Shown piece after piece: positions 23,369 through 54,891 of a DNA stretch of 64,000 bases; the first letter of the stretch is position 1, and the number at the start of each line of letters is the position of its first letter. The stretch is from Hormiphora californensis (Eukaryota > Animalia > Ctenophora). The stretch lies in the NCBI GenBank assembly GCA_020137815.1, contig CM035356.1, positions 124,001 to 188,000 on the forward strand, read 5' to 3'. The notes under the pieces were generated by a model that worked only from the letters and a program-made list of their open reading frames with translations, had not been told where the DNA came from and searched no databases. A program made the translations under genes and the position numbers.

Positions 23369-24573
23369 AATAATAATAAATAATAATAAAAATGACAGTT
23401 TATATCCCGCACTGACACAGTTTGTATACAGACAACTCGTTTTCCTTAATTTGAAAGGGACTGCAGTAGACTGCCTGCTCCTAGCACGGTTCTCTGATAA
23501 CGGTGAGTTAGTGGGGAACTATCCCACTTGGATAAGATTATTACGGATGAAGTAGCAGCCGTCAGGATCTTCTGATCGTATCCGCTTCAAAGTGGACCTT
23601 AGAGCTTTTTGCTCTTTCAGTTCAGAGGGCGTAAGATCCGGAGAGAGATAAACAGCCGAAAACTGTTTGGAGTCTTTGAGGTTTCGTGCCTTTCTGAGGA
23701 GTGCGAGGAGAGTCGCTCTCTTCTCCAGGGATACTAAGAGCGGTCTAGGGCGCTTCTCATTTCTTTCGCCGATGCGTTTCATCGTAGTCACTTTCGGTTT
23801 CTCAATTAATTCCTCAAAAAGTTCGTCTAAAGTAGTTTTAGCTACTCTATCGGTTGTTTCTGGGAGACCAAACACAACCATGTTCTTCTCTCTTCCGGGC
23901 TGTTGGACGGGAGTAGGATGATTCACTGGTAGTGGTTTTCCCACTTTGGGGGAGGTTGCAGCACAATTCTGTGCTAGCACAGTAGAGTAGGCTTTCACCT
24001 TCTGCACCGATGCTGTCACTGTACTGAGTTGTTGCTTCTGGTGGTTGATAACCGTTTGCTGAAGCTCGATTACGTTAACCCGATGGCGGTCAAGTTCTTC
24101 TTTACATTCACGCAGCTGTTTCTCGAGGTTTTCCACACTGATAACCGTTTCAAAATTGTTCATTGTTGCTCGGGCAAGTTTCATACTGGAGAGAAAAATA
24201 CGCGAAGTAGCCTCGATTATTTCACTCGTAGTTCGGTCCTTGAGACAATGTCTAAAGTACGAACCCCAGTGCTTGCTAGGCGAAGCTAAGCTGTCGTTGG
24301 TTAACATTGAATCGGGTGCAGCTTGAATCGATCTATAACATTGAGTAAACTCATCTGGTGTGATGCTCGTCGTGTTGTCCGAATTCAACAGGTAAACTTC
24401 AGAAACAAAGTCATCCACCGTCTCTTCTAATCGTTTTATCATAGGGTTATCGCCCTCGTACTTCGCTTCCGACATTATCAACGTTTCGTTTTTCTGCCCT
24501 TCGGGGCTGTTACATCGGATTCATCTTCCTGCTCAAATTAATTTGTTTAAAGTAGTGTTGAAAAGTTTGAAAC
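23369..24573 (-). mobile_element. SL-headed, ORF1-only non-autonomous LINE derivative
   Basis: SL-like 42-mer at 24573-24532, intact ORF, ~130-nt 3' UTR, (TTA)n-type tail at 23391-23369; no RT. Confidence 0.8.
23519..24475 (-). CDS. LINE ORF1-like protein (coiled coil + RRM-like + C-terminal domain), 318 aa
   Basis: LEKQLRECKEELD coiled coil; REKNMVVFGLPE, RIG..RPRPLLV, VYLSPDLT..E....LR motifs typical of CR1/L2-group ORF1p. Confidence 0.85.
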   Translation of the reverse strand: MSEAKYEGDNPMIKRLEETVDDFVSEVYLLNSDNTTSITPDEFTQCYRSIQAAPDSMLTNDSLASPSKHWGSYFRHCLKDRTTSEIIEATSRIFLSSMKLARATMNNFETVISVENLEKQLRECKEELDRHRVNVIELQQTVINHQKQQLSTVTASVQKVKAYSTVLAQNCAATSPKVGKPLPVNHPTPVQQPGREKNMVVFGLPETTDRVAKTTLDELFEELIEKPKVTTMKRIGERNEKRPRPLLVSLEKRATLLALLRKARNLKDSKQFSAVYLSPDLTPSELKEQKALRSTLKRIRSEDPDGCYFIRNNLIQVG

Positions 24574-24617
24574 CAACAGCCTACGCTTGACATACTCGCT
24601 CACTTTCAAAAGTGGTA

Positions 24618-25011
24618 TGTCAAGGCCTAACAGCTAACTCCAACCCAAACCCCAACCCTAACCCTAACCCTACTTTAGCCCTAACCCAAAAAACCGTTTG
24701 CCAATTGCCAGCACTCACGAAACACTCAGATTTTAACGCTGGCCCACGTGATAAATTTGAAAAAAAAACCACGCGCAGCCCAGATTTTATTTGTCAGCAC
24801 TGCGGCGCACAGAAACGCCGCAGAAACGCCGCGCGCGTGGGAAAAACCGTAAGAGCTTCCATTAGCAACCGGGCCGGGCCGGGCCCCCTTTAAAATAGGC
24901 CAGCGTTAAAATCTGGGTGTTTTGGGAGTGCTGACAAACGGTTTTTTAGGGTTAGGGCTAAAGTAGGGTTAGGGTTAGGGTTGGCGTTTGGGTTGGGGTT
25001 AGGTCTTGACA
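24618..25011. repeat. Inverted-repeat element whose arms contain degenerate CCCTAA/TTAGGG arrays
   Basis: TGTCAAGGCCTAAC..CCCTAACCC..GCACTC..CAGATTTTAACGCTGGCC mirrored at 24897-25011. Confidence 0.7.
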
Positions 25012-25274
25012 TTCCCTACCATATGAACTTTGAATCAGCCAAAACGGTTGAGTGGTTTGGCGGTTAGAGCCATTTTAGTGAATCAACTTTTTTGGCAGCG
25101 CGCACCTGTAAACAGGCCTCCAAACACCCAGATCGTAACGGCGCCCTTTAAAATACTTAGTAGTAAACGCTGAACTTTTTTAGGGAACCCTGTCGATTCT
25201 AGACTCGAGTGATATTTAATGATCCATTAATACATTCGTTTAAATTTTTACTCACTCTGATCGTTTCTAGAAAG

Positions 25275-28200
25275 ATGGCGGAGGTTCTAGATCCTATGAC
25301 ACTCATGCTGTACGAGCTACACTCCAATATTTCGTCCAAAGAACTCAGAACACTTACTGCAGTTACCAATGCGCCACATGATATAAGGTACTAGTAAATC
25401 ACCTTAATTTACTATTTGTTTTTTAAACAAGAATAATTGTGGTATGGTGTCTTACCACCTGATTTCCACGCATAGAATATAATCTGGCATGTCCCAGTTG
25501 CCACGCCTGCTTCTAATTGGACACTGATACGTGAGCCGGTGCAGCTGATTCCAGTTGTCTAATGTCAGTTGTCAACATGGATTAATATCAGCTCTTTTTC
25601 CTAAACCCTATGCCTTTTTGCAAAAAGCATCCAGGTGAAGGATTTAGGAATTTCCTAAAAAAGTAACATTCGGACACTTTCTTAACTTTTTAGATGTGAA
25701 ATAGAGGACGGTCTAGATCTGTTTAGTTATCTTAATGAAGAGGATCTTCTTTACAAAGACTATCTCATCATGCTCGCCAATAGTCTCGGTATAAATTCGG
25801 CAATTTAATAGTAAATGTTCAAACCTCCATGCATTTGTGGTACATACTCTCTCTACTACTATGCTAGTAAACATTTGTAAATGGTAACGGTATCCGTGTC
25901 ATAATATGTAATACATACAATGTTTGTGCTAGTACATACATGTATACTTTCCCCGTTATAGAACGAAAGGATTTAGTTGAGACCATTGATCGGTTTTATA
26001 GCGAGGACTGGAAGGAATCTGCGTTTGCATTCACTACGGAAATATTTCTCAAGACAGGTATACTTTCCTCCGTCGTGCATCCACACATTCAGATATTTGT
26101 TGAATTTTCAGCTGTACATAACTGTTATACTGAGCTGCTGCAGTATTCACAAGCACGGTTAGCACAGTTTACAACCTGCAAATGTCTGTATTATATACCG
26201 CATGACTAATGTATGAGTCCATGGTGAGTAGTGGGTAGGTACTGGATTACCAAACAACACTAATCCTAATTGTCTAGTGGTGTGCAGGTGAAGTACCAGT
26301 TGTTTCTCGGAGCTCATTCCGTACCACTGAGATATCTAACAAATATTCATATGACATTGCACTACAATACACCACCCTGGATTCAGACTTTGCTATTGCA
26401 TTGACACAGGTTAGTGTTAGCTTTTAATTGCACTTGATATACGGCTCTTAGTATTAGTTTATTGAAAATAAGTAGGTATCACTTACCATTGCCAATGCAA
26501 TCTCCCAGGGTCTCAAGGAGAGAGGGGTCAAGGTATGCGAGGGAGAATTCGAGGAGGGACAACTTCAGGCACGATATATTTTGGTAGTTCTATCCAAGCA
26601 GTATTTCACACAAGGTCTTCAGGATCATCTCCTCCCTATCCTGGTGGGTGTTTACTATGGAAGATTTGTAGGTATACCTAACGGGTGTTACACATTTGAA
26701 ACAGCTGTAAAATTTTCCCTTTTGAGATACAGCTTCGGGCCAGTTATAGAGCGATTTTTCAGACAATTTTGAATCGGAATAATACGTATGCCGGCAAAAA
26801 CTAAACTGTTCATTTTCATTGCGATATCGCATCATTTCCTCTTGTCACACCAAAGCATGTAGTACGGAGTGTTACAATATAACAACAGTTATTATAGGAG
26901 TAACATCAAAATGCTTTCTGTGGCTTAACAGTGATGCTCCGTCATATTGGCCGCCCGCATCAAGCATCGCCCAAAGCTTTGTCCACGACGTCTAGCAGGC
27001 AGTTCGCGGGCATTGAATGCTCCTTTTTTTGCGTCGTTGAAAAGGCTTTGGGCGGCGCTGTGCGGGCAGGGTGGTGGCCAGTACACTTGCCTCCCATGTA
27101 TTAAGGTCCAGGTGCGGGCCGCCAATTTCACGGAGTACCACTGTAAAATATGAGTAAAACACTTTACTGTTCGCAGAGAGAGGAGGTGAATCCGGCCGCT
27201 TCATTGCAGCGGATATTCCCTGTCTTAGTTGGATTAACTCCTGAGTCACTTGAGGATCTGTGTCCTGAATTCAACTTAATCTCTCAATTCTCTGCAATAT
27301 CAGGTATGCTTGCCTTGCTCGACCCTGTCTCATTGCGCCCCACACGGTGAAAAATGAAAAATAGTTTAACAAAACAAAGGTATGCTATGTGATATTGTGA
27401 TTAACAAGATAAACAACGATATAATGGTACTAAATCAAATAAATTGACAGAAGCTTTCGAGATCACTGTGTATCACGTCTTCAGCTATAATGAGAGTGAG
27501 GGTGGTAGTCCTTATAAGGGAGGAGAAGAGATAGGTGATCCAGAGGGAGGAGATGTGGTTAGGAAGGAGAGGTGATCCAGGGAGGGGAGGTAAGTGATCC
27601 AGGGAGGAGAGCAGCTAGGAAGCGGTAGGTGATCCGAACTTGGAGATGTTGCTGGGTCTAGGACGGAAGGAAGAGGTGATCCGAGGAAGGAGGGAGTTCC
27701 ACTGAGGATTGATGGCGGGTCCCTTGAGGGTACGGTTGACTTCAGGTTTGAGGATGGTAATGGCAGCGTGTTCTAGGAGATCCAAGTGGGAAGAGGATGG
27801 AGCAGTAGTTAGGATTTCCGTGTTGTTCCAGCCAATGGTGTGTGAAGATTTTAGGGCATGTAGGGCAGGGGCGGATTTGATGTTTCCATAGGAATTAGTA
27901 GAGTTATCAAGGCGGTGATGGCGCTCGTGTTCCGTGATGCGAGTAAGAACAGGTCGTTTGGTTTGGCCAATGTAGGAAGCAGGACAGTCCAGACAGGGAA
28001 TACGGTAGATAACGTTGCACGTTGAAGAAGAGGGAGTAGAGGATTTGGTACGGGTGAGGGTGTTCCTAATGGAGGTAGAAGAAGAAGAGAAGGATACAGC
28101 GATGTTGTAGCGGTTGAGGATCCTCTTCAGTGGGTTGGCCAGGTCAGGATGATAAGGAAGGGAGATCCTGTGGATGATGCGTTGAGAGTCTCTCCATTCA

Positions 28201-31200
28201 CGGTCGAAGTCACCAATAGTGGGTTTCCTGTGTAGTTTATCACGTACAGAGTCCATCAGGGTGGTTGTCTCGTGAGGAGGGAATCCATTAGCCAGGCAGA
28301 TAGAGTAGACGGTGTCGAGTTCCTGTTCCACATGTTGAGGAGAGCAGAGAGTGTAGGCACGTCTGGTGAGGGACTGGATGACGGAGCGTCGAGTAGAGGC
28401 TGGGGTAGAGGAGTTGTATTTCAGGTAGAGGTTGGTGTGGGTAGGTTTCCTGTAGATAGACGTAGAAAGATCAGGGTGGATGAGGACATCAAGATAGGGT
28501 AGGTAGCCATCCTTGGGGTGTTCAATGGTGTACTGGAGGTCAGAAGAGAGGGAGTTGATGTGGTGTTATAGGAAGGCGGTAGCGTGATATTGTGATGTTA
28601 CTCATTGAGGTCATGTCGTTGGGAAAACATCAACTTATCTCAGCACTCAGCAGTAATAGTATGTACATACTTATAACCAAAATCCAGGTAGACGAACTCT
28701 AACTTTTTTAAATGATGTCTATTGTCTAATCAAACAAGTGAAATTGTGACGCTATAAAGTTTCCACCGCCATTCTCGGCCCCATACTGTCTCCTGATCCT
28801 GTGATCGCTGTTACCTTAGTCATAAAATATCTCAACAACACTATTCTCGCATTAGGCGACATAAGAAGGTAAATCACTGGATTGAGGATAGATGTCAGAC
28901 AAGGACTTACTACCCAAACCATAAATTCATTCATTATCAACCTCCATATAGGCATGTTTGACGCTACTACGCTGTCATCTTCGTCATCCCCCCAAAACGT
29001 GACATTGAAAATAATAATTGTTACCCACAAACATGACAATGAGTTTAGGATCAGGACTTTAAGGGTGCTACTCAGGGGAAGGGGTACACCCGCAATAGGG
29101 CGGATGTGCCTCCAAAACAGGTGTATTATAGTCAGTATCCCACAGATACAGCCGATAGCAACAATCAGAAGATAATATCCCGTACATCCTGCCTTCCAGA
29201 TAACTCGACGTGTCGTGGTTGTGTTCCAGCCCAGGCTTATTACCGCATCATACCCCATTATTTGTGTGACAGTATTGACGTAGATGTAGAGAACTTCGCC
29301 AGTCATGAGACACACCATATCAACTAATAGGGGAAGGATCGCCCCTATTACTAAACCCCAAACTACCGCCCTTTCTGGGATGTAGAGGTATGGAAACTGG
29401 ATCTGAAGGAATCGTATCGTTGAGAACAAACTCGTAGTGACAACAGGTACTAGAGTGAAGACACCGTTGATATAGGTGAACACAGATTTCCAGCTCCACG
29501 GCTCAATAACCTCCATATACATGTAGTAGGAGTTGTTGCAGATGGGAGCTTGTAGGGTGTCCTCGTAGCACGATTCTAACTTGCCAGGCCATAGCCCCGT
29601 CATCATGCGTGTTGATATGATGGGCATCCCAAGGAGGTCCATACCAGATAGGATCATGTACAGTGTTCGGGCAATGGAGGCCGGTTTTCTGTAGTTGTGA
29701 AGTAGAATGGTGAAGTTGAGCGGACACGAAATACAGGGAAGGAAGAGGAAGAATAGGAATAGAGTGAAGTCAGGATTTGACGTACCCCCTTCACTGAATA
29801 TTGCCATGATTATTACTCAACTGTCAAAAGGATAAGGGTTGTAAGTAATAGGTAGTCAGAGTGACTAGCGTGTGAAGAAGAAAACCCCCATCGCATGATG
29901 GAGAATATAAATATTTATATTCTACAAAACCGAATATATTACAAAACCTTCCTGTATGCAGCGAAGCAACCTGTAGCTACTCAAAGTAAAACTGTGGTCT
30001 TCTGTGAGGCTTTCGGGGTTCTGTTTTCACTTCTCAAGAACCTTCATTGTAAGAAAACTGCAAAATTTTCCAATCGTAGTTATTCTAGGAAGGCCTAATC
30101 TGGAGTATTACACGGTCGCTTGTAGTGGGAATACTGTAATGGAAAACGGAGACACTGTATGAAGACGCGCAACCGCGTCCAATCGGCGCGGTAGTACGTG
30201 CTGACCACAAAGTACTTTTAACAGATTGTTGACAAAAGCACTCGCGCGTTACGCAAATTCCGCGCAGATTACTGTATTCTGCGTTACAGTATTTTCACTG
30301 CAAGCAGCACTGTAACATAGCTAAGAAGAAAATGCAACTAAGTAAGACAGAAATGATAGAGGATCGTTTGATTCTGTACAGCTGGCAATTGGCATACACC
30401 TGTAAACATACGACCATCATGCCATAGCTAGAGTCTATACCTTTTTTAGTTATAAGCCTGTATTGCGGAAGGACTCATATCTGATATCACTATCAGAATC
30501 GAAGGGAATGTTGTACATTGACCTACCCCAATTTCCATTTGTTGCCACTAGACTACTATTGTACAGGTATAGCAGAGGTGATACGATTAGTGAGTATGAC
30601 AGTACGGAACAGACTGAAGATAACAGTCAGTCAGAACTACCACCCTGCAGTGGTACTAAAGTGCACCTCTAGAGCACAATCAGGTAACTATCAGCTGTAC
30701 TTTAATTACATTCGGAGCTTACTTTGTTAATACGTAATTATAAGTCATAACTTGATCTACCAAACCCTTGCTGCAGAGCACAGTATGAGCCATAACCTCA
30801 TAACTTGTATATTCAGGGAAAAACCAGTCGTTTGAAGTTGGCCTGGCTGAGAGAGATAGTTTCACTGTCAGTAGATCGGAAAACAGCATCCTTTTTAGAG
30901 GAGATAAAGGTGAGTTTATCTATCAATTTTGGTGGTTACAAGGGTGGGGTAACATGCTGGTAAATGCACACAAAAGACACTACCCGTCTTCGTGCTATTA
31001 GCCTTGATGCACATGCGACTGTCTAAGCTTCGCTCCCCGTTGACATTGCCTGAAACCGGCTCAAGCGTGTGTTCATGTGTATTGATTGAATCCCGGTACT
31101 CCAAGACCCCATGAACAAACACAATGAATTTATATTGTTTCCTCATTCATATTATCTTGTTTTTTCTTCTTGTCACATTACAGTCTACCCTACAGCTCAG

Positions 31201-35358: not shown

Positions 35359-38300
35359 TCATTCTTTCATCACGGTTGTGTATGTAGGCTCCTTGTCACC
35401 CCTGACCTCATGGTTATCGTAGATTTCCTCGTCTCCCTCCTCCTCTGAGTAATCAGGTGATTTGGTGCAAGTTGGGGGAAGTGGTGGTGGTAGGGACGGT
35501 ACCTGATCCATTCCACTACCATCTCCATGATAACCTTCTGCTCTGTGATTTGTATAAATCTCATTTATTTCCAGTAGCATTTCAGATCTTGTTTTCCGTT
35601 TGAACACCCCCGCACGAGCCAGGACTACCACTAACAAAGCCAGGAGGGTTGAACCACCAAAAACAGCCCCAACTACGGCCAGAAAGATACTTGTAGTAGC
35701 GGGCCTTACCCCCACAACAGTAGTGATTCTCCCTGCTTTCGTTTCACCGTTATTGTAACTGGTCACATCAACAATTCTGGAGGTGTATTGGACTAGCAGG
35801 GTGAGATTGACAAATGAAGCTGCCTGCTCTACATCAACCTGTGTATCCACGCTGATAATCCGAGAGTTAGCCCCTCCTGATTTTAGATTCCTAACCTCAC
35901 AAGTCAAGTTTACACACTCCCAATCTTTGTCATCCTCCTGACAGTCAACCACGGGCAAGCTGGAGTGCTGCGTACCATTTGAGATTTCCAGGAACTCGTT
36001 TTGTAGATTTCGGTAATTCAGGGTTTCCTCTGTTCCCCTGGTACACGAGAAATCGCCGGTATCAGGACCAGTTATGTTCGATAAGTATATCACCTCTTTC
36101 CCACGGTACATAACTGGATACATGATGTTGACCTCAACCGACGCGACCATGGGACTATCAATGTTGTTAAGAGTTAAATCGAGGGACTGACTTGGACCAA
36201 GACCATACAGAGTTGTGGAGCTCGATTTGTACCCTGAACTGATCAGTCCTGTCATGCTATCTGGTTCGAAGCTGCTTGTTGTGGTAATAGCTGAGAGTTT
36301 CAGTGTTGGAATCTCAAATTGGAGGGTGTTATCAGCTGGGTTGAGTTCCTTTGATCTTTGTGAGGTGAGAGTGACTGTGAAGTTAACCCTCTCCCCATAT
36401 CCTGAAGCTGCGTTTGGCAGTGGCAGATTGAGAACCATCTCCATCTGGTTGGTAGTGGTGGATGTTATTTCACACCACGAAATCGAGGGGTTAGAAGCGC
36501 AGGGACCCTCACAGCCATCACTCAGTGAGACTGCGTAACTATCGGTCGTTATCGCCTCACTGCAGTTGCTCATATTTCGTTGAAGGGATGTGAATGGTAG
36601 GTCAAAGTTTAGGAACTCATTTATGAAGGTCCCTGCTTTTACCTGCACTGTAACTGTAAAGTGAAGCGTCTCCGAGCCGCTTCCAAGATAGAGAGTTGTG
36701 TTGTTAGGAGCAACGAATGAACCTCCTTTCTCCCTGGTGACTGTCCATGTGAGGTCTACAGCAAAATCAGCCTCACACACTTCCTTCCCACACACTCCTA
36801 CAGGCTGTAGAACACGGTCAATACTCACCAGACTATCAGGTACAAATGCAACCTCACGGTGGCTCGGTATTGGATGGTGACGGAATGAGAATGTAATGTT
36901 AATAGGAGACATGTCAAATTCTCGGGCAGTCACGTATCGATCAAAGGTAACATTCCTACACATCACCACGTTAGTAATGATCCTCTCAAACTGTGTCTCA
37001 CTGGCGGTTATGTTAGCGTGACGGGATACCCAGCTGACTGTGATATTAGCAGCAGTATTCTGCTCAGAGTGACTCAAACACACAGAGCAAGTGAAGGCCG
37101 TGGAAGCCCCATCGAGATCGTAGCTAGCTGGACACGTTAACTCTGGAATAAGTGACGTGACGGGGAGAAAACTGTAGATTGAGATGAAATCGATACCCGA
37201 GATAGCTATCTGTGAAGATGTAACTGCAATGTCAAGTCCGAAAGACTCGATATTTTCTTCTGTGACCACCTGTACAGCTGTATCTGCAATACCCTCCCCA
37301 GTAGCAAGGTATATGCTGACTGAACTGGAAAATGACGAGGCAACCGCTATATCAGAATAACCGTTACCGTCCTGGTCTTGGATATTTGCCAAGGTAGCTC
37401 CAAACATACCACAAATACCACTCACAATCCGGTTATGTTCAAATGAACCACCTGCCGAGAGCCGGTACACATGCACCACACCACAGTCCAAAACAGAGCC
37501 CACTTTTGTGGAGGGTGCCGAGATGAGAAGCTCCAGGATGGTGTTGGCATCTTTCCAAAAGAGTAATGCCGAACCGAAACCGTCAAATAGGTTTGGTGAT
37601 GTCAATGTGACGAGGATTGTTCCCACTTTTTGTATAGAAACAGTTCCACCCAGAATGTCAGACGTCTGTAATCTTCCTGAAACACACAATTTGATATTTA
37701 GTTGAAGTTCTGTCAGGCCAATGCTCTGACCACAGTTCTCGTGCACTCCGAAACGAGAATGGGTCAGGACAATGCTCTGACAGTTGAAGTTAGAAATATA
37801 AAGTTGAAAACATGGCCATTTCATACCTGACGTTGCTTCATATAAAACCCCAGAGAAAAGGATGGAGTGGTATGATGCCAGCCCTAATGATGTTATGGAG
37901 CTGTTTCCTCCTGTATCCATCTCCATGGTACCCTCCCTCCAGACTGCTCCTTCATAAAGCATCCCACTATCGTCCAACTTGTACCCGGGTGAAGTTAATG
38001 TTATCCTTCCCTCTGCATTATACCCTCCTTCAACACCCAGCAGACATGTATTACTCGCACTGTACTCTTTCGCCTTGTCGTTGGACGAGATACCCGTGTA
38101 AAACTCAATCCACGCTGATAGGAAGTTCTGGATTTTGATTTTCCTGACATCTGCGAGGCCGGTTTGCAGTGCAAACGAATACTCTTGTTTACAGTATCCA
38201 ATCACATAACTATTTGTAATATCTAGAACTAGATTATCTTGGTCACAAGACCCGCTCTTCGTCTGTGAATTATAGTCGTACGCTGCCACAAAAGTTCCAG

Positions 38301-40058: not shown

Positions 40059-43000
40059 CTAATCAGAGACTGATACCTCACGTTTTTTGTGCTTCTTTTT
40101 CTCTTTTTTGTGCTTTTTAGACTTAATGCTACCCTCCAATTCTCTAATTTTACTTTTAAGATTTTCAGATTTCGATGTCTGTTCATTATCGCTACTCTCA
40201 CTTCGTCGCCTCTGCTTCTTTTCTCTCCTTCCCTCTTTTTTGGAGTCTCTCTCAGTTTTCTCTCTTCTCTCATCGCTGTCCTTGTGACGATCCCTTCTCT
40301 CCTCCTGATCACGAGGTCTATCTTCTCGTCTCCTGTACTCTCTTGATCGGTCGTCGCTTTCTTTCTACCTTTCTTTCATATCGCCTTTTATCATCCCGAC
40401 TTCGATCTCTCCTGTCTTCATTTCTCGTCCTCTCATTCCTGCCACCATCTCTATCCCTCCGATTATCATCATCGTCTCTTCTATCATCATACCGTGGTCT
40501 TCTTTCCTCTCTCCTCCCTTCATGACCTCTTTCATCACGGCGGCGATCACTCGATCCATCTCCTCTCCTACCACCCATTATATCGTCACTGTTGCCTCTT
40601 CTCATCGTATCTACCCCTTCCTCCCCTTCTCTCGCCTCGACCCCCACCTCCTCGGCCACTACCTCCTCGGCCCCTACCTCCTCGTCCCCTCCTCTCACCA
40701 TCCTCTTCCGTTTTCCCGTTAAACTTCATCTGATTCTTGGTGTTCCTACTAAAGTAAAGCTTGGAAACACTCTGTGAGAAATCCACGTGAATCCTCCGCT
40801 CATCAATCAACACATTGTCCATTTTAAAGTAGGCCGATTCGCAATCTTCCACGTTGGAAAACTCGATAAAGGCGTAACAGAGCGAGTCACCAGTTTTCCA
40901 ATCTCTGATAACTTCACACGATCTGAAACATAGAGAGACAAAGTTAGCTGGCAATTAAAAATTATTCATTATTCTGAAAGGGAAGGGAGGGCCTTAAAGT
41001 TTTTCCGGAAAACGTGAGATATTCTCAAATTAGGCTACTTTCAGAGAGGTTAGCGGTTGGAAATTACCCCTACCTTGCGGGCACGCCTTACTACCGCGAT
41101 GCATTAGTTACGAGTGGTAATTTCGTTACCAAGGTTAGCGGTTAACCCTTTCTCTCTAACTTAGAGTCTAGAAACAGGTGCGAGTGTGTTACTTACTCGA
41201 TAGTACCAAATCTGGAGAATATTATTTCCATATCGTCTGATGTGGTGACGGGGTTCAGTTTACACACAAAGAGGACATTCTCAGGAGGCTTCATGTCAGC
41301 ATCCGGTAAATCACCTGATAGAAAAGTAAACTAATAATAATAATAATAATATTCATACTTATATCCTGCCCATATTCTACAGGGACAGCAGAGCTTTACA
41401 GATGCTGCCACTGGAGGAAACTCAGAGCAGTTAACTAACTCTTAACCCAAATATAGAGACTCAAACAAAAAACGGTGGAAAAAATCCAAATTATCCGGAT
41501 CACATAAGTGGAAAACAGATTAGGCTCATAACAGACCAAAATAGAAAAAACTCGAAAAAAGGCCACAGGATATATGTCACCACTGTCACTTCATCACTCC
41601 AAATATAGACACAGATCAAATGTTCAGACAACAGATTCTGAACAACTGGATAACTGAAAATCGGAATAAAATTACACACTCGTGCTTCACTCATGCTGCA
41701 AACCCATCGAATAAAGATCAGTTAAAAACTTGTCACGAGGTAAGATACAGACCTAAGTACAATACTTACGCTAGACAGTACAGCGTGATGGGAGGAGTAG
41801 GTACCGAGAAAAGATGTAGGCTGGAAAAAGGAAAAACAACCGGAACTAGCCTGATCCAAAGGCATCCACAAACAATCTTGTCTTTAACCCCGTTTTGAAA
41901 GATTCCACAGCCGGCCGAGATCGCAACTCAAGGGGGAGTGCATTCCACAGATCTGGCAGGAGAACAGATGGTCTCCTTTTCCTCAGTTTAGAATTTGCAT
42001 TAATGCTCGACAGCTTCGGGTACTGGAGCTTATAAGGGTCTGGAACAGCAGTCGATCTGGTACGGCAAGTAACATCAACGATATCTGTAGGTATTTGCTC
42101 AATGAGGTAATCTGGAGCACTTCCATGTACAATCTTATAGGCCATGAGACAGGCCTTAAAGATCACCCGTTGCTCCACAGGGAGAATGTGGGTTTCTCTC
42201 ATGTAAGGGAGGTAGTCCTCTTGATGACCGTGGAGTCCATAGATAAACCTTATACAAGAGTTGAGCACTTTCTGTAACCGAGAGATGAGCTTCATTGGCA
42301 AACCTCCGTAGAGGACATTGCAATAATCCAAGCGGGATATAACCAGCTGCTTAACAAGAAGGATTCTGGTAGAGAAGTCCAGGCATCGGTGGACTTGCCA
42401 TAAGTTCCTCAGTAGCATTCCACAGTTTCTTCTGACACTGTTCACCTGACGTTCCAATGTCAGGTTCTCATCCATATAAATACCCAGAGTCTTTCCGGTA
42501 GTACCTGTGAAGTCAACTGGGTAGATATCTGCATCCCCAAACCTAATACAGGGCTCAAAAGCCAGCTTGTCAATGGCACTGCTCTTCCCTAGAAGAAGGA
42601 GCTCCGTCTTCGACTCATTACACTTCAGCCAATGCTGAACCATCCAAGTCTTGATCTGATCAAGACACTCTTCAACTTTCCTCCTCGTGATACTCCATCC
42701 ACTTTCATCAAGAGGGACTAGACTCACATAGATTTGAGAGTCATCCGCATAGAGTTTGATTTTGAGTCCATACTTGTGTACCAGATCCTGTAGTTCCTCA
42801 ACATATAAAAGAAACAAAACCGGTCCGAGAAGGGACCCTTGTGGCACTCCACAGATCAAGTAGATAATCTTCGATAGTTCTCCTCTAACGTTGACTCTGA
42901 AGTTCCTCAGTCCAAGATAGCTAGTAAACCACTTGAGTGCTGTTCCTCTTATTCCAAATCTCCTTCTCAAAACATCCACAAGTTTAGCATGGTCAACCGT

Positions 43001-46000
43001 GTCGAACGCTGCACTCATGTCCAAAAGGAGTAGAGCTACAACATTTCCCTTATCCATCTCCTGCAGTAGATCATCAAACATCCCCATGAGTAGAGTTTCA
43101 CAGGAATGACCAACTCTATATCCTGACTGGTGAGAGTTGAGTAGGTCATTTTCATTCAGAGCCTGATTCAGTTGATCAAGGACAACTTTCTCTAGAACCT
43201 TAGAGACAAAGGGAAGGTTAGACACCGGACGGTAGTTGGAAAGGCTATCACGATCACCATAGGGGTTCTTGATGGTTGGAAAAACCAGTGCTTGCTGGAA
43301 CAATTCTGGAACAATACCTTGACGGATAGAAGAATTGATAATCTTAGTAAAGAGTGGAGCAAAAACGTCCACGCACTCTTTGATCAACCATGTCGGTATA
43401 AGATCAAGATCACACGTTTTATCCGACATATTCTTAATGATCCTCTTCATCTCATCCTCAGAGACTTCCCTGAATTCCTCAAGAATACAATCCTTATCCA
43501 GGTCCACAAGAGAGTCCACATCCTCCGCAGGAAAGTCCACATCTGCCTTCACTGAGTTCCTGATTTTTTCCACTTTTCCAGTAAAGAAGTCCGCAAAATC
43601 CTCGGCTAGTTTACGATCACAATCCACATCCGGCAACAACACCTCACTGTTTCCAAGTAGTCGATTTAGTTTCCTCTGTAACGCTTTGGAATCCCCTTTT
43701 GATTCTTCAAGATCTTCTTTCAGATAGTTAGTCCTCGCTTCCTTATCAACTCTACTAAACATCTTCTTCATCACGTTATACTGCATCTTCGTAACAGGTG
43801 TCTTCTTGCTTCTCCAAGCCCTCTCCGCAGTCCGACGTCTTCTTAGCGCATCCCTGACATCATCATTGTCTCTCCACGGGCGAACCTTTTTCACTTTCTT
43901 TCTTCTCTTCAAAGGGACAAAACTATCCACTAACTCCTTCATTTCTCTTTCATAGATCTCAAACAAATCATCTGGGGAATCCAAATCAAACCGTCCCTCA
44001 AGGCCACTTCCTCTGAGGGCCTTCATGAACAATACCGGGTCCACTGATTTAAAGTCTCTGTAGGTGTTAACTCGATCCCGTTGCTGTAGGTTTCCAACCT
44101 TAGTCTCCAGTACGACTTCACTCAGAACAAGAAAATGGTCAGACTCTGTTCCCTCAGGATGTATTTCCACAGATTTAACTTTCTCCTCTACCTCCTTTGG
44201 ACATATAACCAGGTCAAGAGTACCTCCACGGTTGTGAGTTGGTTGCCTGGGGACAAGCTGAGAAAACTCATGTGAGTCCAGGAGTTCAGCAAGCTTCTTA
44301 GTGTAGAAGTTGTCCCTATCCTGCCATTGAAAGTTAAAGTCTCCCATAATAAGGGGAAGACCAGTCTTCAATACTAGCTCCGAGAGATAGTCTGTGAATT
44401 CCTCTAGGAACTTCGCTTCAGTGAACCTAGCTTTACCGGTATAGGGCGGTCTGTAAACATTACATATCCGAGTAAGGTCCATTCCTTTACCAATTAAAAT
44501 CTCCTGAATCTGGAACGATTTAAATTTCCTCACTGGTGGTAGTTTCATCTTAACTCCATCCCTGTAGAGTATCCCAATACCGCCTCCTGCCCTCTCCGCC
44601 CTAGGGGATGAGAAAATATTCCAGCCATAGTCTCTTATCTCCTGAAGTTTCGCGGTATCACTAGTCTTCAAGTAGGTTTCCTGAATCAGACAGATATCAC
44701 ATTCCATGTCTTCAAGATGCGCTATAACCCCAGACGTTTTATTCATTATCGAGTGCACATTTAGTGTGCCAACACGCCACGTCTCTTTACCTTCAGTTCC
44801 TCCCACGCCCTCGTCAGATAAGCGTTTTTTCTCTCCTTACTGACACCACTTGTGTTTTCCATCAGTCTTCCTCGAGCATTAACATAATGCGGACACAAGT
44901 TACTTGATGCTGGATGGGATTTCGCATACTTCTTGTCATCCTTACTACCTCCAACATCACAGTTTACACACTTCATCCGATTGAGTTCATTCCCACTCTT
45001 CGCCTTACATTGTCTGGTGTCATGATCTCCTGCACAGAAGGCACAGGTGGCGCTTTTATCTTTACTCGGACAATAGACAGATCCAGCTACATGTCCATAA
45101 CGCTGGCAGTGGAAACACTGAGTAACGTAGAATCTGTCCTTCACAATGTGCTGTCTTAACTTCAGGAAAATCCTATCTCGATTATCAGCAATGGCTTCTC
45201 GTATATCAGGTGTAACCTTGAGCACCGCATACCTCCCAGCAGTGTTAACATGAATGACACTGACAGCCTGCCCAGACTCATATAGCCTCTTCACCACTTC
45301 ATTCTTATCACTCAAGATGGCGTCCAATAGCACCTCTTTGTTCAACAGGTCATGGTCCAGATCGGAAATCAATACCCGAGGATCCATCTTCTTCTGCTTC
45401 TCAACAAACGGAGTAACATTCCAGAAACGGGGACAGCACTTTCTCTGCTTCTTTGAGGTCGTCATCAGTTGCAAAAAACAACTGAGTGCCCTTCCTGTTC
45501 ACCGAAGTGTCCAAGACGGGGATGTTCTTCAGAGCTTTCACGACCTTCGGTTTCACTACCATTTTCCACTTCTCCTCACACATTGGTGTCACTCCTTCCT
45601 CATTGCTGTCTTTGATGCTCATATACCGTTTCACAGGGGTAGCTGGTGCAGCTTTCTTCTCCTGCTGACCAGAACTACACGTTACTTCACTCTCCTCTCG
45701 GTTCTTCTTCAATATCTCATTGACTACTGGGGCCATGAGTCCAGGTAGGCTATCCATCAACTCTTGCTTCAGTTTTGAGAAACCATCCTTCAGATCATCA
45801 CTTGAAATCGAGACTCCAGAATCTGACGATGGTGTAGGACACCGGGAACTGTCCGGAAGCATCCGGTAACACATAATCAACATCTGCCAAAGATCCTTCT
45901 TCGTAGGTCCACCTGGAGCATCCATAGGCTCACCCGGGGTACCAGCATCCTCCTCCAATTTCTTCCACACTGTACTGCCTTTACATTTGTCAGAGAAGCT

Positions 46001-47573
46001 CGTGACAAGGAGCTTACCTTCGAAGTCCTTCTTCGTTCCACTTTCATACTGGGGTGCCAATCCCGACATTCTATCCTGTAACAGTGGCGCGAGGATCCGA
46101 TCCACCAAGATTTGGCTTCCTGGATTTGGCTCAACGAGGTCTCCCAAGATCTGCCCAACTTAGAAAGAGACAGGAACACCAGGCTTGTCTTGTCTTGAAA
46201 AGAGGGGGATTGAGCAGAAGTCTTAGAAGAGTAACGAGGAGCAGTTGAACGGAACCTCAAATTAATTTGTTTAAAGTAGTGTTGAAAAGTTAATAATAAA
46301 TAATAATAAACAATGTTCCCTCAAACACTTATCACTAGTTATTTTCCCTACGTACCTATAATTTCCAGCATCTGTGTATTTGCTTTCAGCTCCTTTTCCT
46401 CGATGTATTCCACGACTTCTTCGGTAGTCAAACCCTCCAAACGGTTGATCGCCTCCCCTACAGCTAACCGGTCTGATTCGAGAACATGGGTAGGCGGGGA
46501 TGGGGACCTTGATGGAATCGGCAGTCTCTGGGGGCAAGGGGGGGGGGGTTAAAAATAGGTAATAAAAAACATTCGACACGGCCAGTGTTATTGATAAGAT
46601 TTCACGTTGATAATTTTGGGAAGTCTATATCACTAATAATTATAGCTAATTATACTTATTACCCCTGGATCATCAAATGGATCATGAAGTATGACGGTGT
46701 GGTTTATCCGGATATCTTGGTATGGTCTTCCCTTTTCATCACAATACGATTCATTGATCTGCCATATAACATCCTCACCTGGAAACAGCTGAGTTAGAAA
46801 CGGGAAGCAAAACCTGAACAAGTTAGCCCCCTCTTTCTCAAGCTCCCCCAAACTAATTTCTTGATTTATTATACCTTCGGCGATAGTTCCAAAGACAGTA
46901 TGGACCCCATCCAGTGTGTCAGCACAGTCAGTTGTTGTTATCAAGAACTGAGATCCATGCATTCCATTACCTGAGTGATAGAAAGGGCTGTGCTACTACC
47001 CCTCCCTTTATCGCACATTTCAGGGATAACAGGCTATCATGGAAAGTCTGGTTTGTTGCCTCGTTACTATTAGAAAGGTTACACAACTTCTGACCTACCA
47101 TCATTGACCATGGAAACAGTTAGCCGGTTGGTATGCTTCAATTTAGGGACAGTTTCCCGTTCAAAGAACTTAGCCTGCTCTCCATAGACCAGTCTGAATA
47201 TAGAACTGCCTCCCTTATCATCAATATCACCTGGATAAAGGGGTCACACGTTAAATGCAGCTGTAAGAGTAACATCACTCATTGTATGATCAATGGTACG
47301 GATTTGGAAATCACCATTGTCATTGTTAGTAAGAAGCTATCTCAACTAGAAGAATTTTGAAGGCACATGACCACTTGGCATGGATTCCTAGATTTAAAGA
47401 CTGTTTAACTCACCGCACTGAATGATAAAGTTCCGCTGAACATTATGTACCGCACAGAAGTTATACATTTTCAATTTGCACAGCTTGATAAAGTTCAGGG
47501 AGGTCCTGGGCCGCTCCTCTGTGAATAGGTCAATGACAATGTCGCCCAAGGTAGTTTCGAGTAGCACCGACAT
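40059..47573 (-). CDS. PPIL4: Cyclophilin-RRM protein PPIL4; the charged tail shows two apparent frameshifts
   Basis: [24 protein letters not shown]; GSQFLIT; [20 protein letters not shown]; [15 protein letters not shown]; [40 protein letters not shown]. Confidence 0.93.
41846..44806 (-). CDS. LINE ORF2: APE endonuclease + reverse transcriptase, 986 codons, no AUG before the first EN motif
   Basis: LNVHSI, QET, GDFN, SDH; [41 protein letters not shown]. Confidence 0.95.
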   Translation of the reverse strand: MGGTEGKETWRVGTLNVHSIMNKTSGVIAHLEDMECDICLIQETYLKTSDTAKLQEIRDYGWNIFSSPRAERAGGGIGILYRDGVKMKLPPVRKFKSFQIQEILIGKGMDLTRICNVYRPPYTGKARFTEAKFLEEFTDYLSELVLKTGLPLIMGDFNFQWQDRDNFYTKKLAELLDSHEFSQLVPRQPTHNRGGTLDLVICPKEVEEKVKSVEIHPEGTESDHFLVLSEVVLETKVGNLQQRDRVNTYRDFKSVDPVLFMKALRGSGLEGRFDLDSPDDLFEIYEREMKELVDSFVPLKRRKKVKKVRPWRDNDDVRDALRRRRTAERAWRSKKTPVTKMQYNVMKKMFSRVDKEARTNYLKEDLEESKGDSKALQRKLNRLLGNSEVLLPDVDCDRKLAEDFADFFTGKVEKIRNSVKADVDFPAEDVDSLVDLDKDCILEEFREVSEDEMKRIIKNMSDKTCDLDLIPTWLIKECVDVFAPLFTKIINSSIRQGIVPELFQQALVFPTIKNPYGDRDSLSNYRPVSNLPFVSKVLEKVVLDQLNQALNENDLLNSHQSGYRVGHSCETLLMGMFDDLLQEMDKGNVVALLLLDMSAAFDTVDHAKLVDVLRRRFGIRGTALKWFTSYLGLRNFRVNVRGELSKIIYLICGVPQGSLLGPVLFLLYVEELQDLVHKYGLKIKLYADDSQIYVSLVPLDESGWSITRRKVEECLDQIKTWMVQHWLKCNESKTELLLLGKSSAIDKLAFEPCIRFGDADIYPVDFTGTTGKTLGIYMDENLTLERQVNSVRRNCGMLLRNLWQVHRCLDFSTRILLVKQLVISRLDYCNVLYGGLPMKLISRLQKVLNSCIRFIYGLHGHQEDYLPYMRETHILPVEQRVIFKACLMAYKIVHGSAPDYLIEQIPTDIVDVTCRTRSTAVPDPYKLQYPKLSSINANSKLRKRRPSVLLPDLWNALPLELRSRPAVESFKTGLKTRLFVDAFGSG
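44761..46069 (-). CDS. LINE ORF1 with CCHC zinc knuckles, one frameshift near 45425
   Basis: [25 protein letters not shown]; the two overlapping ORFs join at SPF/WNVTPF if one base is removed. Confidence 0.8.
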
Positions 47574-50321: not shown

Positions 50322-50403
<82 letters not shown>

Positions 50404-51090: not shown

Positions 51091-51727
51091 ACTTGTTTGA
51101 TTTTAGTGATATAGATCCACACGGAAATTGGTTTGAAGATAATAGAGGAGAGACTGGAGTGTCATAGGAAGTTTCAATGCAATAATAACAGTGTTATTGA
51201 TGTTCCATTTCATAGACCTTTCCAAGGTGCTCTCCTAGTACACCATGTACATTCAGTACAAGTCGACAAACATTTCATTTGTACACACTATACCATTTCA
51301 AACTTAGCTTAAATAATTCCAAATGTATTATGTCACTTTAAATTGTCTCGTTTTCATTCCTAAGAAAGATTTTCTAAAACCTGCATATTAGCCATCTAGT
51401 CTTGGGTGGTCTCAACTCTCTGATCTCACTCTCCCAAGGCTATTAAAAAGGAAAGATGTGGAAAAGGGAGAAAATGTGGACTATTGTATGTGAGGCCTAA
51501 TGGACGGCTGCTGCGAGTGCAGTAGTCTAAATGGTATTGTCGGGGGCTAAGAGAGATAGGGATTCTTCAAAGAGAGAGAGAACACGCATTATACATAGGG
51601 TCAGACTGAGCAAGATGAGTGTTTAGCACCCTCACGGTAGTAGTAGCACGATACTCTCATAGGGGGGGGGGGTATCTTTGGATCTCTCTGTTCTCTCTGT
51701 GTACACAAAACCTAATTGTTTTACTAT

Positions 51728-52018
51728 TGCAACTCAAGTCACTTATTATAGGGGTTATGTATAATCCCGGATAACCTAGATAATAGGTATTTTCAGCAAA
51801 GCTATTTCAGCATATATACGAGCTGTAATACTCCGAAAATCAAGCCCAGATAGCTCGTATAACCCGGATATACCAGATAAGGGCGAGATAATCAGGCCCT
51901 GATATCCCGGATTTTCTAACGGGCTATCCTGAAAGTACTTATTATCTGGGTTATCCTCGAACTATCAGGGTTATCCGGGATTATACATACCCCCTATTAT
52001 AAGTGACTTGAGTTGCAA
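51728..52018. mobile_element. Foldback/MITE-like element
   Basis: TTGCAACTCAAGTCACTTAT..GGATAACC / GGTTATCC..ATAAGTGACTTGAGTTGCAA. Confidence 0.8.
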
Positions 52019-52247
52019 ATATTTTTCCTTTATCTCTATTCAGTTGATTACCATTGTTCTTAGTATTATCATGCTTATACTCATTGTTTGTTTTGTACCC
52101 CTTTCCAACGTCTCAGATGAAAGAAGGATCATATTTACACTCCATAGTCCATTATAATACTCAAACACTCCTTGTTTAGCGTCGTATAAACCAACAAGAA
52201 ATTCTATCCATAATGAACAACTACAAACTCAACAAACGGTGAACATC

Positions 52248-54891
52248 ATGGTGCACGAAGAAGAAGGAACTGTAGAGTGCGAGAGTATAACTCTAGTCAA
52301 CAACCACCAGGGGGATAGTGAATCAATTTCCTGTAATTATCCTAATGATAGGGAGATAATTACTCTAAATGTTAGTGGACTAAAGTTCCAAACTAGACGA
52401 GCAACACTACGAAGATTTCCATACACTTTACTAGGTAATTCTAACTTATTAGGTATGCTGCACGAATGTATATTCCATCGCTTCAGTGACACTATCAGGT
52501 TCTTAATGATCACCTGATGATTCGTTTTCCATCAGGGATTCCATGAAACATGTCTTGCCACCAAAATAAAAGTATTTCGTTAGTTCTTTAAATTCCAAAT
52601 TCTAAAGTTCAGTTAGTTGATAGATCTTGTTGCTAATTTCCATTTGTCAGAATGTTTCAATAATAATTTCAGGTTCGGCTGAGTTGGAGGAGTTTTATGA
52701 ACCTTCCCTTGACGAATACTTCTTCGATAGAGACCGCTCTACCTTTCCAACAATCTTAGGTAACATATTTAGTCTGTTGACTACTTTTCAACACTACTTT
52801 AAACAAATTAATTCGAGTACTGATGATTGGTGTCATTGACATCATGAAACATATGTTTGCCACAAGCTAAATTGTTTAAATTTGTAGTCAGTTGACTCCT
52901 ATCCTAAATTTATATTGAGCTAATCCCCGTTGTAGGCTATTACCAAAACAACGGAATCCTCTGCCTGCCATCATACGTAAACCCAGATATATTCGGGGAG
53001 GAGGCCAAGTTTTTCAAGCTCCCACCAGAGATCGTGTCTAGGTTCCACGTGGAGACAATGAACGAGATACAGAGACAGGCCGTGAATGGACAACAGAAAT
53101 GGGATTACCCCTACCAGAAGGAAATCTGGAGGGTTAGTACTCAATATTAGTGTGATTTCAAATAACTGATAAGTAATTACTCATTACATAATATACTCAT
53201 TACATATTATGTAACTACTACTAGATATTACTAGGTACATCACCATCATAGCAACAATTCAAATCACTGTTTGTTGAGTGACATTAGGACCCCGTTTTTC
53301 AGCTATTCGATGACCCCGAATCAGGGATTTGGGCCCGTGCCATAGCCTACTTTGACGTGTTTGTTATATTCTGTGCGGTAACAACACAATGTATTGAGTC
53401 TCTACCGGAGATAAGGAATTATGATAGCAGTATGACGGAGACAGATGCACGGCTAGTTGATGCTTATTTCAGGTACCAAGGGGTTTGCGTAGATTGGAAG
53501 ACAATTGTTACATGTTAGTTGTTACCTGTTCGAACCGTGTCCTTTTGACAATATTATATTCTCTAAAGCTGACAATCAAACTTTCCCAAGCGTGTGTGCC
53601 GATGATTATTGAAAATTAGTCTTGGCCCGGCGGTGACCAGAAAGTGCGTTTAGTTGGCAGGGCGGCAGCTAAATTTTAATTGCCAAAACATGCGTGAGAA
53701 ACAATTTAGCAAGCGACAAACCGATCGGGGGGGGGGGGGGGGGGGTTGCGTTATCAAATAAACTTTTGAGATAGTAAATGGTCCGTGTATATTTTGGACA
53801 TTAAATGTCATTTTCCGGGCTTCGCTTAGGCCTTAGAGATACTGGATCACCCTAAAATGTAAAACCCCCAACATTACACTGGTTGTAATCAATAGAGGGA
53901 GTTACATGTTGAGGGCATTATTACTGGAAATTCATTCTTTCTCGCTTTGATCTGAGCAAAGCGAGGAAGGGAAATCCAACCCCCTCCTCTAAGATGTACT
54001 AACCACCAAATTCCCTCTGCAGTTTAGGTACGATAGCATCAATAGCGAAGACGGTAGAGATAGTTGAGTACTTTAGTAACATCTGGTTCACCATAAACCT
54101 TGTATTCAGGCTGGTATCATGTCCCGACAAGAAAGAGTTTGTTAGAAGTGTCCTAAACTGGTAAGACCACATCATTTGTATTTTGTAACTAACACAAAAC
54201 AATCTGATTCTAAGTAGAGCAGAGAATTATGTATACACCAACATACCTTTTTAGCTGCACTCATTCCTTGTTGGCATTCAACCCAATAAACCACATCTCT
54301 CCCAGGTTTGATATCCTAGCCATCCTTCCCTTCTACGTTGAGCTCATCATTACCTCTCAACGTGATGCCCTCGGCTTCTTCACTGTTCTCCGGTTCTTCA
54401 GGACCCTCAGAGTGGTCAGGATTTTCAAGATGACACGATATTTCCAGGGTCTCTTCGCCCTTGGTTATGCCCTCAGCTCAAGTGCGGGAGAGCTTGTAAT
54501 CCTGTCATTGATGCTGGTGATATTCGTGGTTCTATTTTCATCTCTTATCTTCTTCACCGATAAATGTGATCCACCTGATTGCCCAGAGAATGGGTTTGAT
54601 AGCGTGGTGGCAGGGTTCTGGTGGAGTATTATAACGATGAGCACGGTGGGGTATGGAGATTATGTTCCAAAAACTCGATCTGGTAAGGTGGTAGGATCCA
54701 TGTGTGCCTTGACTGGCATCCTCGTCATATCCCTGCCCTTTCCACTAATTATCACACGGTTTAACCGCTTCATGAAACTGAAGTTAGCGAATAGAAAACT
54801 GACGATTGAAGACGGACAGGGTCCCACTGTTGATTCAATAGCACCCGAGTATGCGGGGGTGGCAGTAGATTTTAACAGAAAAAACATGTAG
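52248..54891 (+). CDS. Voltage-gated potassium channel (Shaker-superfamily Kv), 6 exons; start codon uncertain
   Basis: T1 domain (LNVSGLKFQT..FPYTLLG; EYFFDRDR), LFDDPES, S4 LRFFRTLRVVRIFKMTRY, pore WWSIITMSTVGYGD, S6 LPFP. Exons approx 52248-52434/52452, 52673-52759, 52936-53132, 53303-53472, 54022-54160, 54306-54891. Confidence 0.93.
52783..52884 (+). mobile_element. 102-bp SL-headed retroposed insert with hammerhead-like core
   Basis: SL-like 35-mer (one mismatch) 52783-52817; CTGATGA 52820-52826; GAAAC 52846-52850; flanking TAGTC(T/A)GTTGACT direct repeat. Confidence 0.65.

Follow-up and report, generated by a model that had tools for sequence, protein, structure and literature searches.

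Three inserts within a 64,000-nucleotide stretch of Hormiphora californensis DNA (hereafter the window) begin with the spliced leader (SL) of their host and were very probably copied into the genome from RNA that had already been leader-trans-spliced. The full account, in which the leader is also likely to be re-added in every round of copying, is given a probability of about 0.5. The leader copies were confirmed at 24573-24532 and 46291-46256 on the minus strand and at 52783-52817 on the plus strand, the last with one mismatch, and they head an ORF1-only element, a LINE and a 102-bp insert, respectively. In all three the shared sequence ends at the leader's terminal AG, and a self-BLAST of the three inserts shows nothing else in common, in agreement with a preliminary description that had called the downstream sequences unrelated.

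Leader identity and the leader-element junction

The pleurobrachiid SL is 43 nt long, and the window motifs are its 3' 42, 36 and 35 nt. Its 27-nt core occurs three times in the window and not once in 100 shuffles. An exact leader search of metagenome contigs, in which a perfect 27-mer was required, returned 42 loci: 30 are host mRNA 5' ends, 11 are LINE-type elements (10 of them firm) with the same junction as the window copies, and one is an SL RNA gene (L027) sited in a 5S array. A Pfam family was found in 26 of the 30 host mRNA contigs and a reverse transcriptase or endonuclease in none, while in L027 the leader is followed by a GTAAG donor. The preliminary description had taken the motif to be a ctenophore SL and proposed a comparison with mRNA 5' ends and SL RNA genes; both carry it, and the identification holds. 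The window leader matches the published Hormiphora leader, whose extra 5' G is absent from L027 (PMC8527503). The leader search of viral and prokaryote contigs gave 0 and 0 matches. A perfect-27-mer search cannot recover families whose leader has decayed or is missing, and the metagenomes, being at low coverage, are biased toward repeats and against single-copy host retrocopies.

The junction falls at the AG that ends the SL exon in all 14 element copies (3 from the window and 11 from metagenomes), and in run X1, which may be the window's own source and is not independent evidence, another 21 DNA contigs exit the leader exactly at this AG into unlike sequences, so the expected clustering of junctions at the AG was found. 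On the other side, 20 contigs of run X1 add missing leader bases 5' and then diverge. None of the 14 element copies has a significant match to the SL intron (best, 4 of 500 shuffles in one of 14 tests), and derivation of the LINE 5' UTR from this intron was rejected (36/500 for the window LINE and 4/500 for the ORF1-only element, nonsignificant over 14 tests). In the ten copies with 30 nt of flank, only 1-9 of 30 positions match the region upstream of the SL gene. Host leader identity, junctions at the AG, and the absence of SL intron or SL gene flank give good support to the earlier claim that trans-splicing preceded retroposition. Among the matches listed, the leader-element junction was not found in RNA contigs of one run (X15), which contain pieces of element bodies.

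Three kinds of insert behind one leader

The LINE (41332..46291, minus strand) is a ~4.95-kb APE-RT element with an (ATT)n tail, headed by leader positions 8-43. It is full-length, as described earlier, and ORF2 is open, but ORF1 occupies two frames (44761..46069, minus strand) with a frameshift near 45.4 kb; in L019, which has the same leader junction and 77% nucleotide identity, ORF1 is a single 473-aa frame. ORF2 (41846..44746, minus strand) encodes an N-terminal APE endonuclease and a reverse transcriptase (Pfam PF03372, PF14529 and PF00078). The ORF1, the APE-RT ORF2 and the short-repeat tail are those of the L2 group, and the reverse transcriptase and C-terminal motifs resemble L2/Crack/Daphne signatures, which makes the LINE a putative L2-group member; at least 120 homologues are present among the matches listed, none with a clade name. 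Relatives of this LINE make up 7 of the 11 metagenome LINE-type elements, with ORF1 31-85% identical among them, and across the eight families of this one clade the junction is kept within 1-2 nt while identity in the initial 130 nt is 33-94%. A family contig covering 45507-46274 passes unbroken into the leader at a depth of 269, as compared to 33 in the flank. The LINE lies in sense in an intron (41315..46355, minus strand) of a PPIL4-like cyclophilin-RRM gene, whose neighboring introns are confirmed by RNA contigs with joints at 40922-41197 and 46527-46663. The site is an ATT-rich tract in which target duplication and tail are inseparable, and no empty-site allele was seen, with contig rows at the ATT repeat left out.

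The ORF1-only element (23369..24573, minus strand, ~1.2 kb) consists of leader positions 2-43, a 56-nt 5' UTR, ORF1, a ~125-nt 3' UTR and an ATT-rich tail, with no clear target duplication. The same layout is found in L040. Lengths are recorded for 22 homologue contigs, and 21 of these are shorter than 2 kb. Because the 3' UTR also resembles the start of an endonuclease, 3' truncation of this particular copy may apply. The 318-aa ORF1-like protein (23519..24475, minus strand) is predicted to contain a coiled coil, an RRM-type domain and a C-terminal domain. By sequence it has no match in Pfam or PDB, while a Foldseek search with its structure model (mean pLDDT 59.6) places human L1 ORF1p in the top six rows, the best with a weak E of 0.009. 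An ORF1p-type fold, the lack of ORF2, a tail of its own and the existence of several families suggest, on the modeled fold, that the element works like HAL1, with no membership claimed. A hairpin common to the ORF1-only heads shows no covariation in five sequences, and a search of the element's surroundings for a host gene was negative, with 0 of 39 ORFs passing the Pfam curated cut-off.

The 102-bp insert (52783..52884, plus strand) joins leader positions 9-43 to a 67-nt body, with no tail, between two copies of a 13-bp target duplication (52770..52782 and 52885..52897, plus strand) that agree at 12 of 13 positions in the window and at all 13 in contigs of X1 and X5. It lies in sense in an intron (52760..52935, plus strand) of a plus-strand Kv channel gene whose flanking exons encode the T1 domain; the orthologous intron of a second organism (organism B) has 120 unrelated letters in place of the insert. 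Both intronic copies are indeed sense to their hosts, although two of two gives p=0.25 and shows no bias. The insert is not a one-off, since its body belongs to a multi-copy family: depth, which is summed and is not a copy number, is 670-1280 against 30-41 in the flanks in X1 and 2770-5385 against 185-230 in X5.

Two nucleotides after the leader, the body contains a minimal hammerhead-type motif (52820..52857, plus strand) with a CUGAUGA core, one unpaired base, a 7-bp helix II, GAAA, a palindromic helix III and a 3-bp helix I. The core, a helix II of 7-8 bp, an unpaired base after position 9 and a palindromic helix III are the marks of Penelope minimal hammerheads. A descriptor composed after the sequence had been seen matches twice in the 64 kb and at all in only 1 of 200 shuffles. 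The G10.1-C11.1 pair is missing, with T facing T, and is present in the loose-end consensus of a sister family. Rfam does not detect the motif and gives no gathering hits in the window. Two other identities for the insert were rejected. An SL RNA gene or a snoRNA is contradicted by the lack of both a donor and a match to the SL intron and by an Rfam E of only about 1, and a leader fold-back is not favored by folding (z -0.22). A Penelope-like element truncated at its 5' end provides a comparison hammerhead (27451..27484, minus strand) within its 3' repeat; the ORF remnant of this element, at 28565-27615, has a GIY-YIG match below the Pfam cut-off (E 0.015), and a pyrimidine tract and TAG directly precede the hammerhead core. 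No parent element was found for the body of the 102-bp insert, which by analogy with this hammerhead is probably a repeat of Penelope type.

Probable renewal of the leader and competing explanations

Element heads are clipped at the 5' end in 13 of 14 copies (median 2 nt; 28-43 nt of leader left) and full-length in one, yet they match the SL gene, and the 11 metagenome copies have no internal mismatch in a summed 136 leader bases beyond the search word. A crude simulation without renewal lost the 27-nt core in a median of five rounds. Because clipped copies nonetheless match the SL gene, the leader is probably renewed in each round.

The proposed cycle would begin with transcription of an element copy from upstream, since in no copy is the leader preceded by 5' sequence belonging to the element. 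The SL snRNP would then, in all likelihood, trans-splice the capped 43-nt leader onto the element RNA. Reverse transcription to or near the cap follows, and its result is visible in the sequence, where copies retain 28-43 nt of leader, carry a tail or are bounded by a target duplication, and have flanks unrelated to one another. The next round probably restores the clipped heads, so that the leader would not be inherited with the element. The ORF1-only element would likely borrow a LINE ORF2. In the LINE clade and in ORF1-only elements, the next acceptor is about as likely as not to be the terminal AG of the old leader. The leader end is T-rich and its terminal AG is the only AG after position 2, so such a swap would be seamless and leave no tandem relic; a second leader piece within 300 nt was found at 0 of 43 loci.

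The terminal AG lies in the triplet GAG. GAG is generally a poor acceptor, and the host cis acceptors read here are YAG in 8 of 8. In addition, CAG or TAG occurs within 6 nt of the leader in 4 of 13 elements, three times as TTTYAG (seen in 0 of 30 host mRNAs), and should outcompete the leader's terminal AG; 11 of 30 host mRNAs also retain an AG within 6 nt of the leader. Host donors lie 100 nt (LINE) and 58 nt (102-bp insert) before the AGs of the leaders and could compete in cis, and a cis donor is said to outcompete the SL (PMC4558846).

A less likely explanation is that trans-splicing is incidental: rare master copies would have their own promoter, outron and native acceptor, and headed copies would mostly be dead ends. 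It needs no GAG acceptor, and about 30% of Hydra transposable element reads carry an SL, with no obligate cycle claimed in the accessible part of that report (PMC12220107). A single master could escape notice among some eight copies, but the depth of the junction contig is near that of the next contig (269 vs 294), no contig among the matches listed has non-SL sequence before the LINE 5' UTR, and all eight clade families were seen only with the leader, though they were selected for it. For the Penelope-type insert, incidental trans-splicing is the preferred reading. The native pyrimidine tract and TAG of the Penelope remnant, and X1 and X5 loose-end consensus strings that open with the hammerhead core right after the leader, make it likely that the leader was joined to an acceptor that the element itself supplies next to the hammerhead; this insert would then have no need of an old-leader acceptor.

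A single ancestral capture, after which the leader was inherited as the element's own 5' end and perhaps acted as an internal promoter like Pr77 of L1Tc, is improbable. Trypanosome L1Tc does give unspliced internal-promoter transcripts in a trans-splicing host (PMC1874656), and the rare full-length heads could sustain lineages under selection. Four or more unrelated groups (the LINE clade, the ORF1-only elements, L024 and the hammerhead repeats) would, however, each have to capture the leader independently and keep it perfectly, as in the 136 bases above, while the adjacent UTR drops to 33% identity; moreover, leaders differ among ctenophore genera except in a 3' motif (PMC8527503). Very improbable is a jump of the reverse transcriptase from element RNA to SL RNA or an SL-bearing mRNA, or an RNA ligation, for which U6-L1 chimeras are the model. 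While SL-bearing RNA is plentiful (56% of Iso-Seq reads; PMC8527503), varied landing sites and some SL intron or mRNA bases would be expected, and the 14 of 14 junctions at the exon end, common to families, largely refute it. Least credible is an assembly artefact, raised by the Schistosoma mansoni authors for six cases (PMC5832876), or NeSL-like insertion into SL RNA genes. Within the scope of the tests, both are refuted by X1 and X5 DNA contigs that bridge flank into leader at these window sites, by flanks unlike the SL gene, and by the APE endonuclease.

Significance and known systems

A non-LTR element has to restore the 5' end that is prone to loss in reverse transcription, and the known solutions are internal promoters and 5' ribozymes. 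Re-addition of a host leader at its own last AG would, if true, be a third, found in an animal and scarless in a leader without internal AG: a portable acceptor would cut the element from a passing host transcript, cap it and rebuild its 5' end to the base. The host leader would also provide one strand of the hammerhead of Penelope-type repeats. We hold only tentatively, and with some doubt, the joint picture in which LINE clades and their ORF1-only parasites are promoterless, the leader is their portable acceptor, Penelope repeats converge on it, and most SL loci are element heads. The Hormiphora californensis genome has 718 dispersed leader copies of 35-48 bp, termed spliced-leader loci and left unclassified in section 37 of that report (PMC8527503). 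The leader is the same, and here three of three copies in the window are retroelement heads; the 718 copies would need rereading, and transposon heads may account for most of what ctenophore annotations count as SL genes or list as 'shared first exons'.

The basic idea of SL-bearing retroelements is already in print for flatworms, a different phylum. A partial leader lies beside retroelements at 597 loci (PMC12582326), and six transposable element genes of S. mansoni have leader sequence (PMC5832876); both reports attribute such cases to possible integration of trans-spliced retrotransposon RNA. In their accessible text, these LTR and LINE loci are mentioned briefly and left out of consideration, and neither an analysis of junctions nor a fixed clade-wide head nor a renewal cycle is described. 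We found no paper on leader-headed ctenophore retroelements or a terminal-AG cycle, with subscription journals and Repbase reports outside the scope. Trans-spliced transposable elements in Hydra were described at the RNA level (PMC12220107), while here genomic copies carry the SL heads. In dinoflagellates, RNA that has been trans-spliced is retroposed together with its leader, and re-splicing takes place at a site inside the genomic leader (PMC12014239); those retrogenes are host genes in which an internal site leaves tandem relics, while the bodies here are elements, the only usable AG is terminal, and tandem relics are lacking. SL-relic retrogenes were reportedly also treated by Slamovits and Keeling in 2008.

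NeSL, SLACS, CRE and CZAR are non-LTR elements that insert into SL RNA genes with a restriction-like endonuclease. Both they and the present elements adjoin SL sequence, but here the leader is inside the insert, the sites are dispersed and intronic, the flanks are unlike the SL gene and the endonuclease is APE, which upholds the distinction drawn in the preliminary description. The LINE shares ORF plan, tail and L2-type motifs with L2-group LINEs, and differs in having the host leader as its 5' end. HAL1 is likewise non-autonomous and encodes only an ORF1p-fold protein (PMC5753468); the likeness is of fold only, and the window element is leader-headed, with an ATT tail as in the LINEs here. 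Penelope hammerheads have in common with the 102-bp insert a long helix II, the unpaired base, a palindromic helix III and a short helix I, while the G10.1-C11.1 pair and an ORF are absent from the window copy (PMC4209133). Hammerhead helix I marks the end of the Penelope intron in Drosophila virilis (PMC4209133); the splice site is at helix I in both, and the upstream partner here is a trans-spliced leader rather than a cis exon. Newly found here is a multi-copy repeat in which a Penelope-type minimal hammerhead lies 2 nt past the leader.

Leader identity and its carriers

All three stretches of spliced leader (SL) recorded in the preliminary description are present in the window, and the leader-carrying inserts show hallmarks of insertion. 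The window contains three copies of the 27-nt leader core, against none in 100 shuffles; apart from the leader, no sequence is common to the three inserts. The motif, taken earlier for a ctenophore SL, is indeed the published Hormiphora californensis leader (PMC8527503), and it heads host mRNAs and forms the exon of an SL RNA gene. In the available text of that paper, the leader is carried by 56% of Iso-Seq reads and has 718 genomic occurrences.

One exact scan of metagenome contigs for the leader returned 42 loci. At 30 of these the leader lies ≤7 nt from the contig end with an ordinary ORF downstream; a Pfam family is found in 26 of these 30 contigs, and a reverse transcriptase (RT) or endonuclease in none. 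Eleven of the 42 are LINE-type, among them seven that are related to the window LINE, two related to the ORF1-only element and L037, a probable member assigned solely through a common 5′ motif. In three of the eleven just 1-6 nt precede the leader, which leaves their flanks unproven. The locus L024 is a leader-headed APE LINE of a type other than the window LINE clade, with a zinc-finger type ORF1 unrelated to that clade, and adds another independent group to those headed by this leader. The scan ratio of 11/12 is not a genome-wide share, because a perfect word was required and repeats were favoured.

In the window LINE (~46291-41332, minus strand), ORF1 is frameshifted and the APE-RT ORF2 is open; the element, with its (ATT)n tail, lies within an intron of a PPIL4-like host gene, sense to it. 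Its motifs make it a probable L2-group element. In X1, a sequencing run that may share its sample with the window, a contig of this LINE family is unbroken from body into leader, with a depth of 269 versus 33 in the flank. In 21 X1 contigs the sequence departs from the leader precisely at the AG, and 20 contigs supply the 5′ leader bases absent from the window copy before diverging. Loose ends at 46235 in X1 and a second run, X8, mark a sister LINE subfamily, present in both organisms A and B among the runs, that matches through the leader and for 21 nt into the 5′ UTR before diverging.

The ORF1-only element (24573-23369, minus strand) encodes one protein, whose predicted structure best matches human L1 ORF1p, weakly (E 0.009). 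The three atlas clusters closest to this protein consist mostly of Ctenophora among entries with a recorded phylum; with the identity of the leader, this assigns the window to a pleurobrachiid-type ctenophore. The metagenome locus L040 has the same layout and its own tail. Homologues of this element sit on contigs <2 kb in 21 of the 22 cases with recorded length; ORF2 homologues, by contrast, are mostly on 3-6 kb contigs. Translation of part of the 3′ UTR (23390-23440, minus strand) resembles the beginning of an APE endonuclease, so the window copy may be truncated; the same stretch alternatively resembles the 3′ end of the LINE just ahead of its tail. A short GC hairpin motif lies 15-25 nt past the leader in the window (24490-24520, minus strand) and in L020, L037 and L040, carriers with ORF1s that are either distant or cannot be aligned; five sequences showed no covariation. 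Directly 5′ of the insert is an inverted-repeat element with telomere-like TTAGGG runs (24634-25002). Elsewhere, the window contains a hAT-type transposase split over two ORFs, with a BED finger and a dimerisation domain (3629-5787, plus strand), a tandem duplication of 622 bp whose copies are nearly identical and which lies inside inverted repeats (13825-15556), a single-exon MFS transporter (19943-21238, plus strand), a GPCR-looking ORF with no Pfam match (28752-29807, minus strand) and a largely intronless integrin-alpha-like ORF (35359-39161, minus strand).

Junctions and probable trans-spliced templates

In 14/14 copies, comprising the three window heads and the 11 metagenome LINE-type elements, the junction falls at the end of the SL exon, and neither SL intron nor SL gene flank was found. 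Together with the identity of the leader, these observations favour the earlier proposal that the RNAs were trans-spliced before retroposition, although one RNA run gave host exon joints and pieces of the LINE body with no leader-element junction among the matches listed. We put the probability that the element templates were trans-spliced RNAs at roughly 90%. The accompanying remark that intronic copies are sense to their host gene holds for both, but two of two is uninformative as a bias.

The SL RNA gene, found at the metagenome locus L027, consists of a 43-nt exon followed by a GTAAG donor, and its RNA has a strong predicted fold (z -3.87). The base immediately 5′ of the exon is C, and the 5′ G of the published leader is therefore probably untemplated. 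SL RNA and 5S rRNA genes alternate on the same strand at this locus in a 778-bp tandem unit (L027:263-830 and 1041-1610).

Probable leader renewal and its possible acceptor

In eight families the leader is retained exactly and the junction position shifts by no more than 1-2 nt, at identities of 31-85% in ORF1 and 33-94% over the next 130 nt. It is likely that the leader would be renewed in each round. Inheritance alone would erode leaders within a few rounds, since 13 of the 14 heads are without 1-15 nt of the leader; a crude simulation of it, which ignores selection for full heads, gave erosion within a median of 5 rounds.

As the native acceptor is absent from the RNA after trans-splicing, a stable junction needs either the AG of the old leader or unseen masters. 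Chances are about even that the acceptor would be the last AG of the old leader, in which AG occurs at positions 1-2 and 42-43 only. Re-splicing of a genomic leader within itself is described for dinoflagellates in the available text of PMC12014239. No tandem leader relic was found in 43 loci. Several observations count against use of the old AG: the terminal triplet of the leader is GAG, versus YAG at 8/8 host cis acceptors in the window (boundaries placed manually, with RNA joints confirming two of them); TTTYAG directly follows the leader in three elements, versus 0/30 host mRNAs starting so; both intronic copies lie downstream of a host donor at an intron-like distance; and the RNA matches listed include no leader-element junction. 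Cis donors are reported to win (PMC4558846, available portion), although in S. mansoni cis acceptors make up 43% of the SL sites (PMC5832876, likewise). TTTYAG or CAG right behind the leader in L020, L024, L040 and the window (24529-24531) may represent a persisting tandem acceptor.

Hammerhead motifs and related systems

The 102-bp insert (52783-52884, plus strand) has a multi-copy body and a 13-bp target duplication that is perfect in X1 and in another run, X5, and it is absent from the corresponding intron of organism B. A minimal hammerhead motif lies 2 nt past its leader. An exhaustive descriptor, composed after the motif had been seen, gave two matches in the window and one in 200 shuffles; the second window match is a minimal hammerhead within the 3′ repeat of a 5′-truncated Penelope-like remnant (27440-28565, minus strand). 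A pyrimidine tract and TAG, a strong-looking splice acceptor, immediately precede that hammerhead. Loose-end consensus strings contain at least one further leader-hammerhead family (four contigs in X1, two in X8). At 52823 and 52827, loose ends in X1 and X8 reveal other families, known from 30-letter consensus strings only, that join leader and hammerhead core within 2 nt. For the hammerhead repeat, an acceptor of the element's own would be a simpler source of the leader junction than the AG of the old leader.

The motif of the 102-bp insert was undetected in an Rfam search. It fits the architecture of Penelope hammerheads in the available text of PMC4209133, where the D. virilis Penelope intron ends at the same hammerhead helix, but is missing the G10.1-C11.1 pair. 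The literature searched contained no report of SL-headed elements in ctenophores, of an SL head fixed across a whole clade in any animal or of a Penelope hammerhead with an SL joined at it, and the available portions of PMC12460157 and PMC9911081 hold nothing further on elements. As far as the accessible parts of these sources go, leader fragments adjoin LTR and LINE elements in flatworms, with the same retroposition reading (PMC12582326; PMC5832876), Hydra TE transcripts carry an SL (PMC12220107), and the ORF1-only element works like HAL1 (PMC5753468). The SL-headed retroelements of the window are real, and their basic kind was already known.
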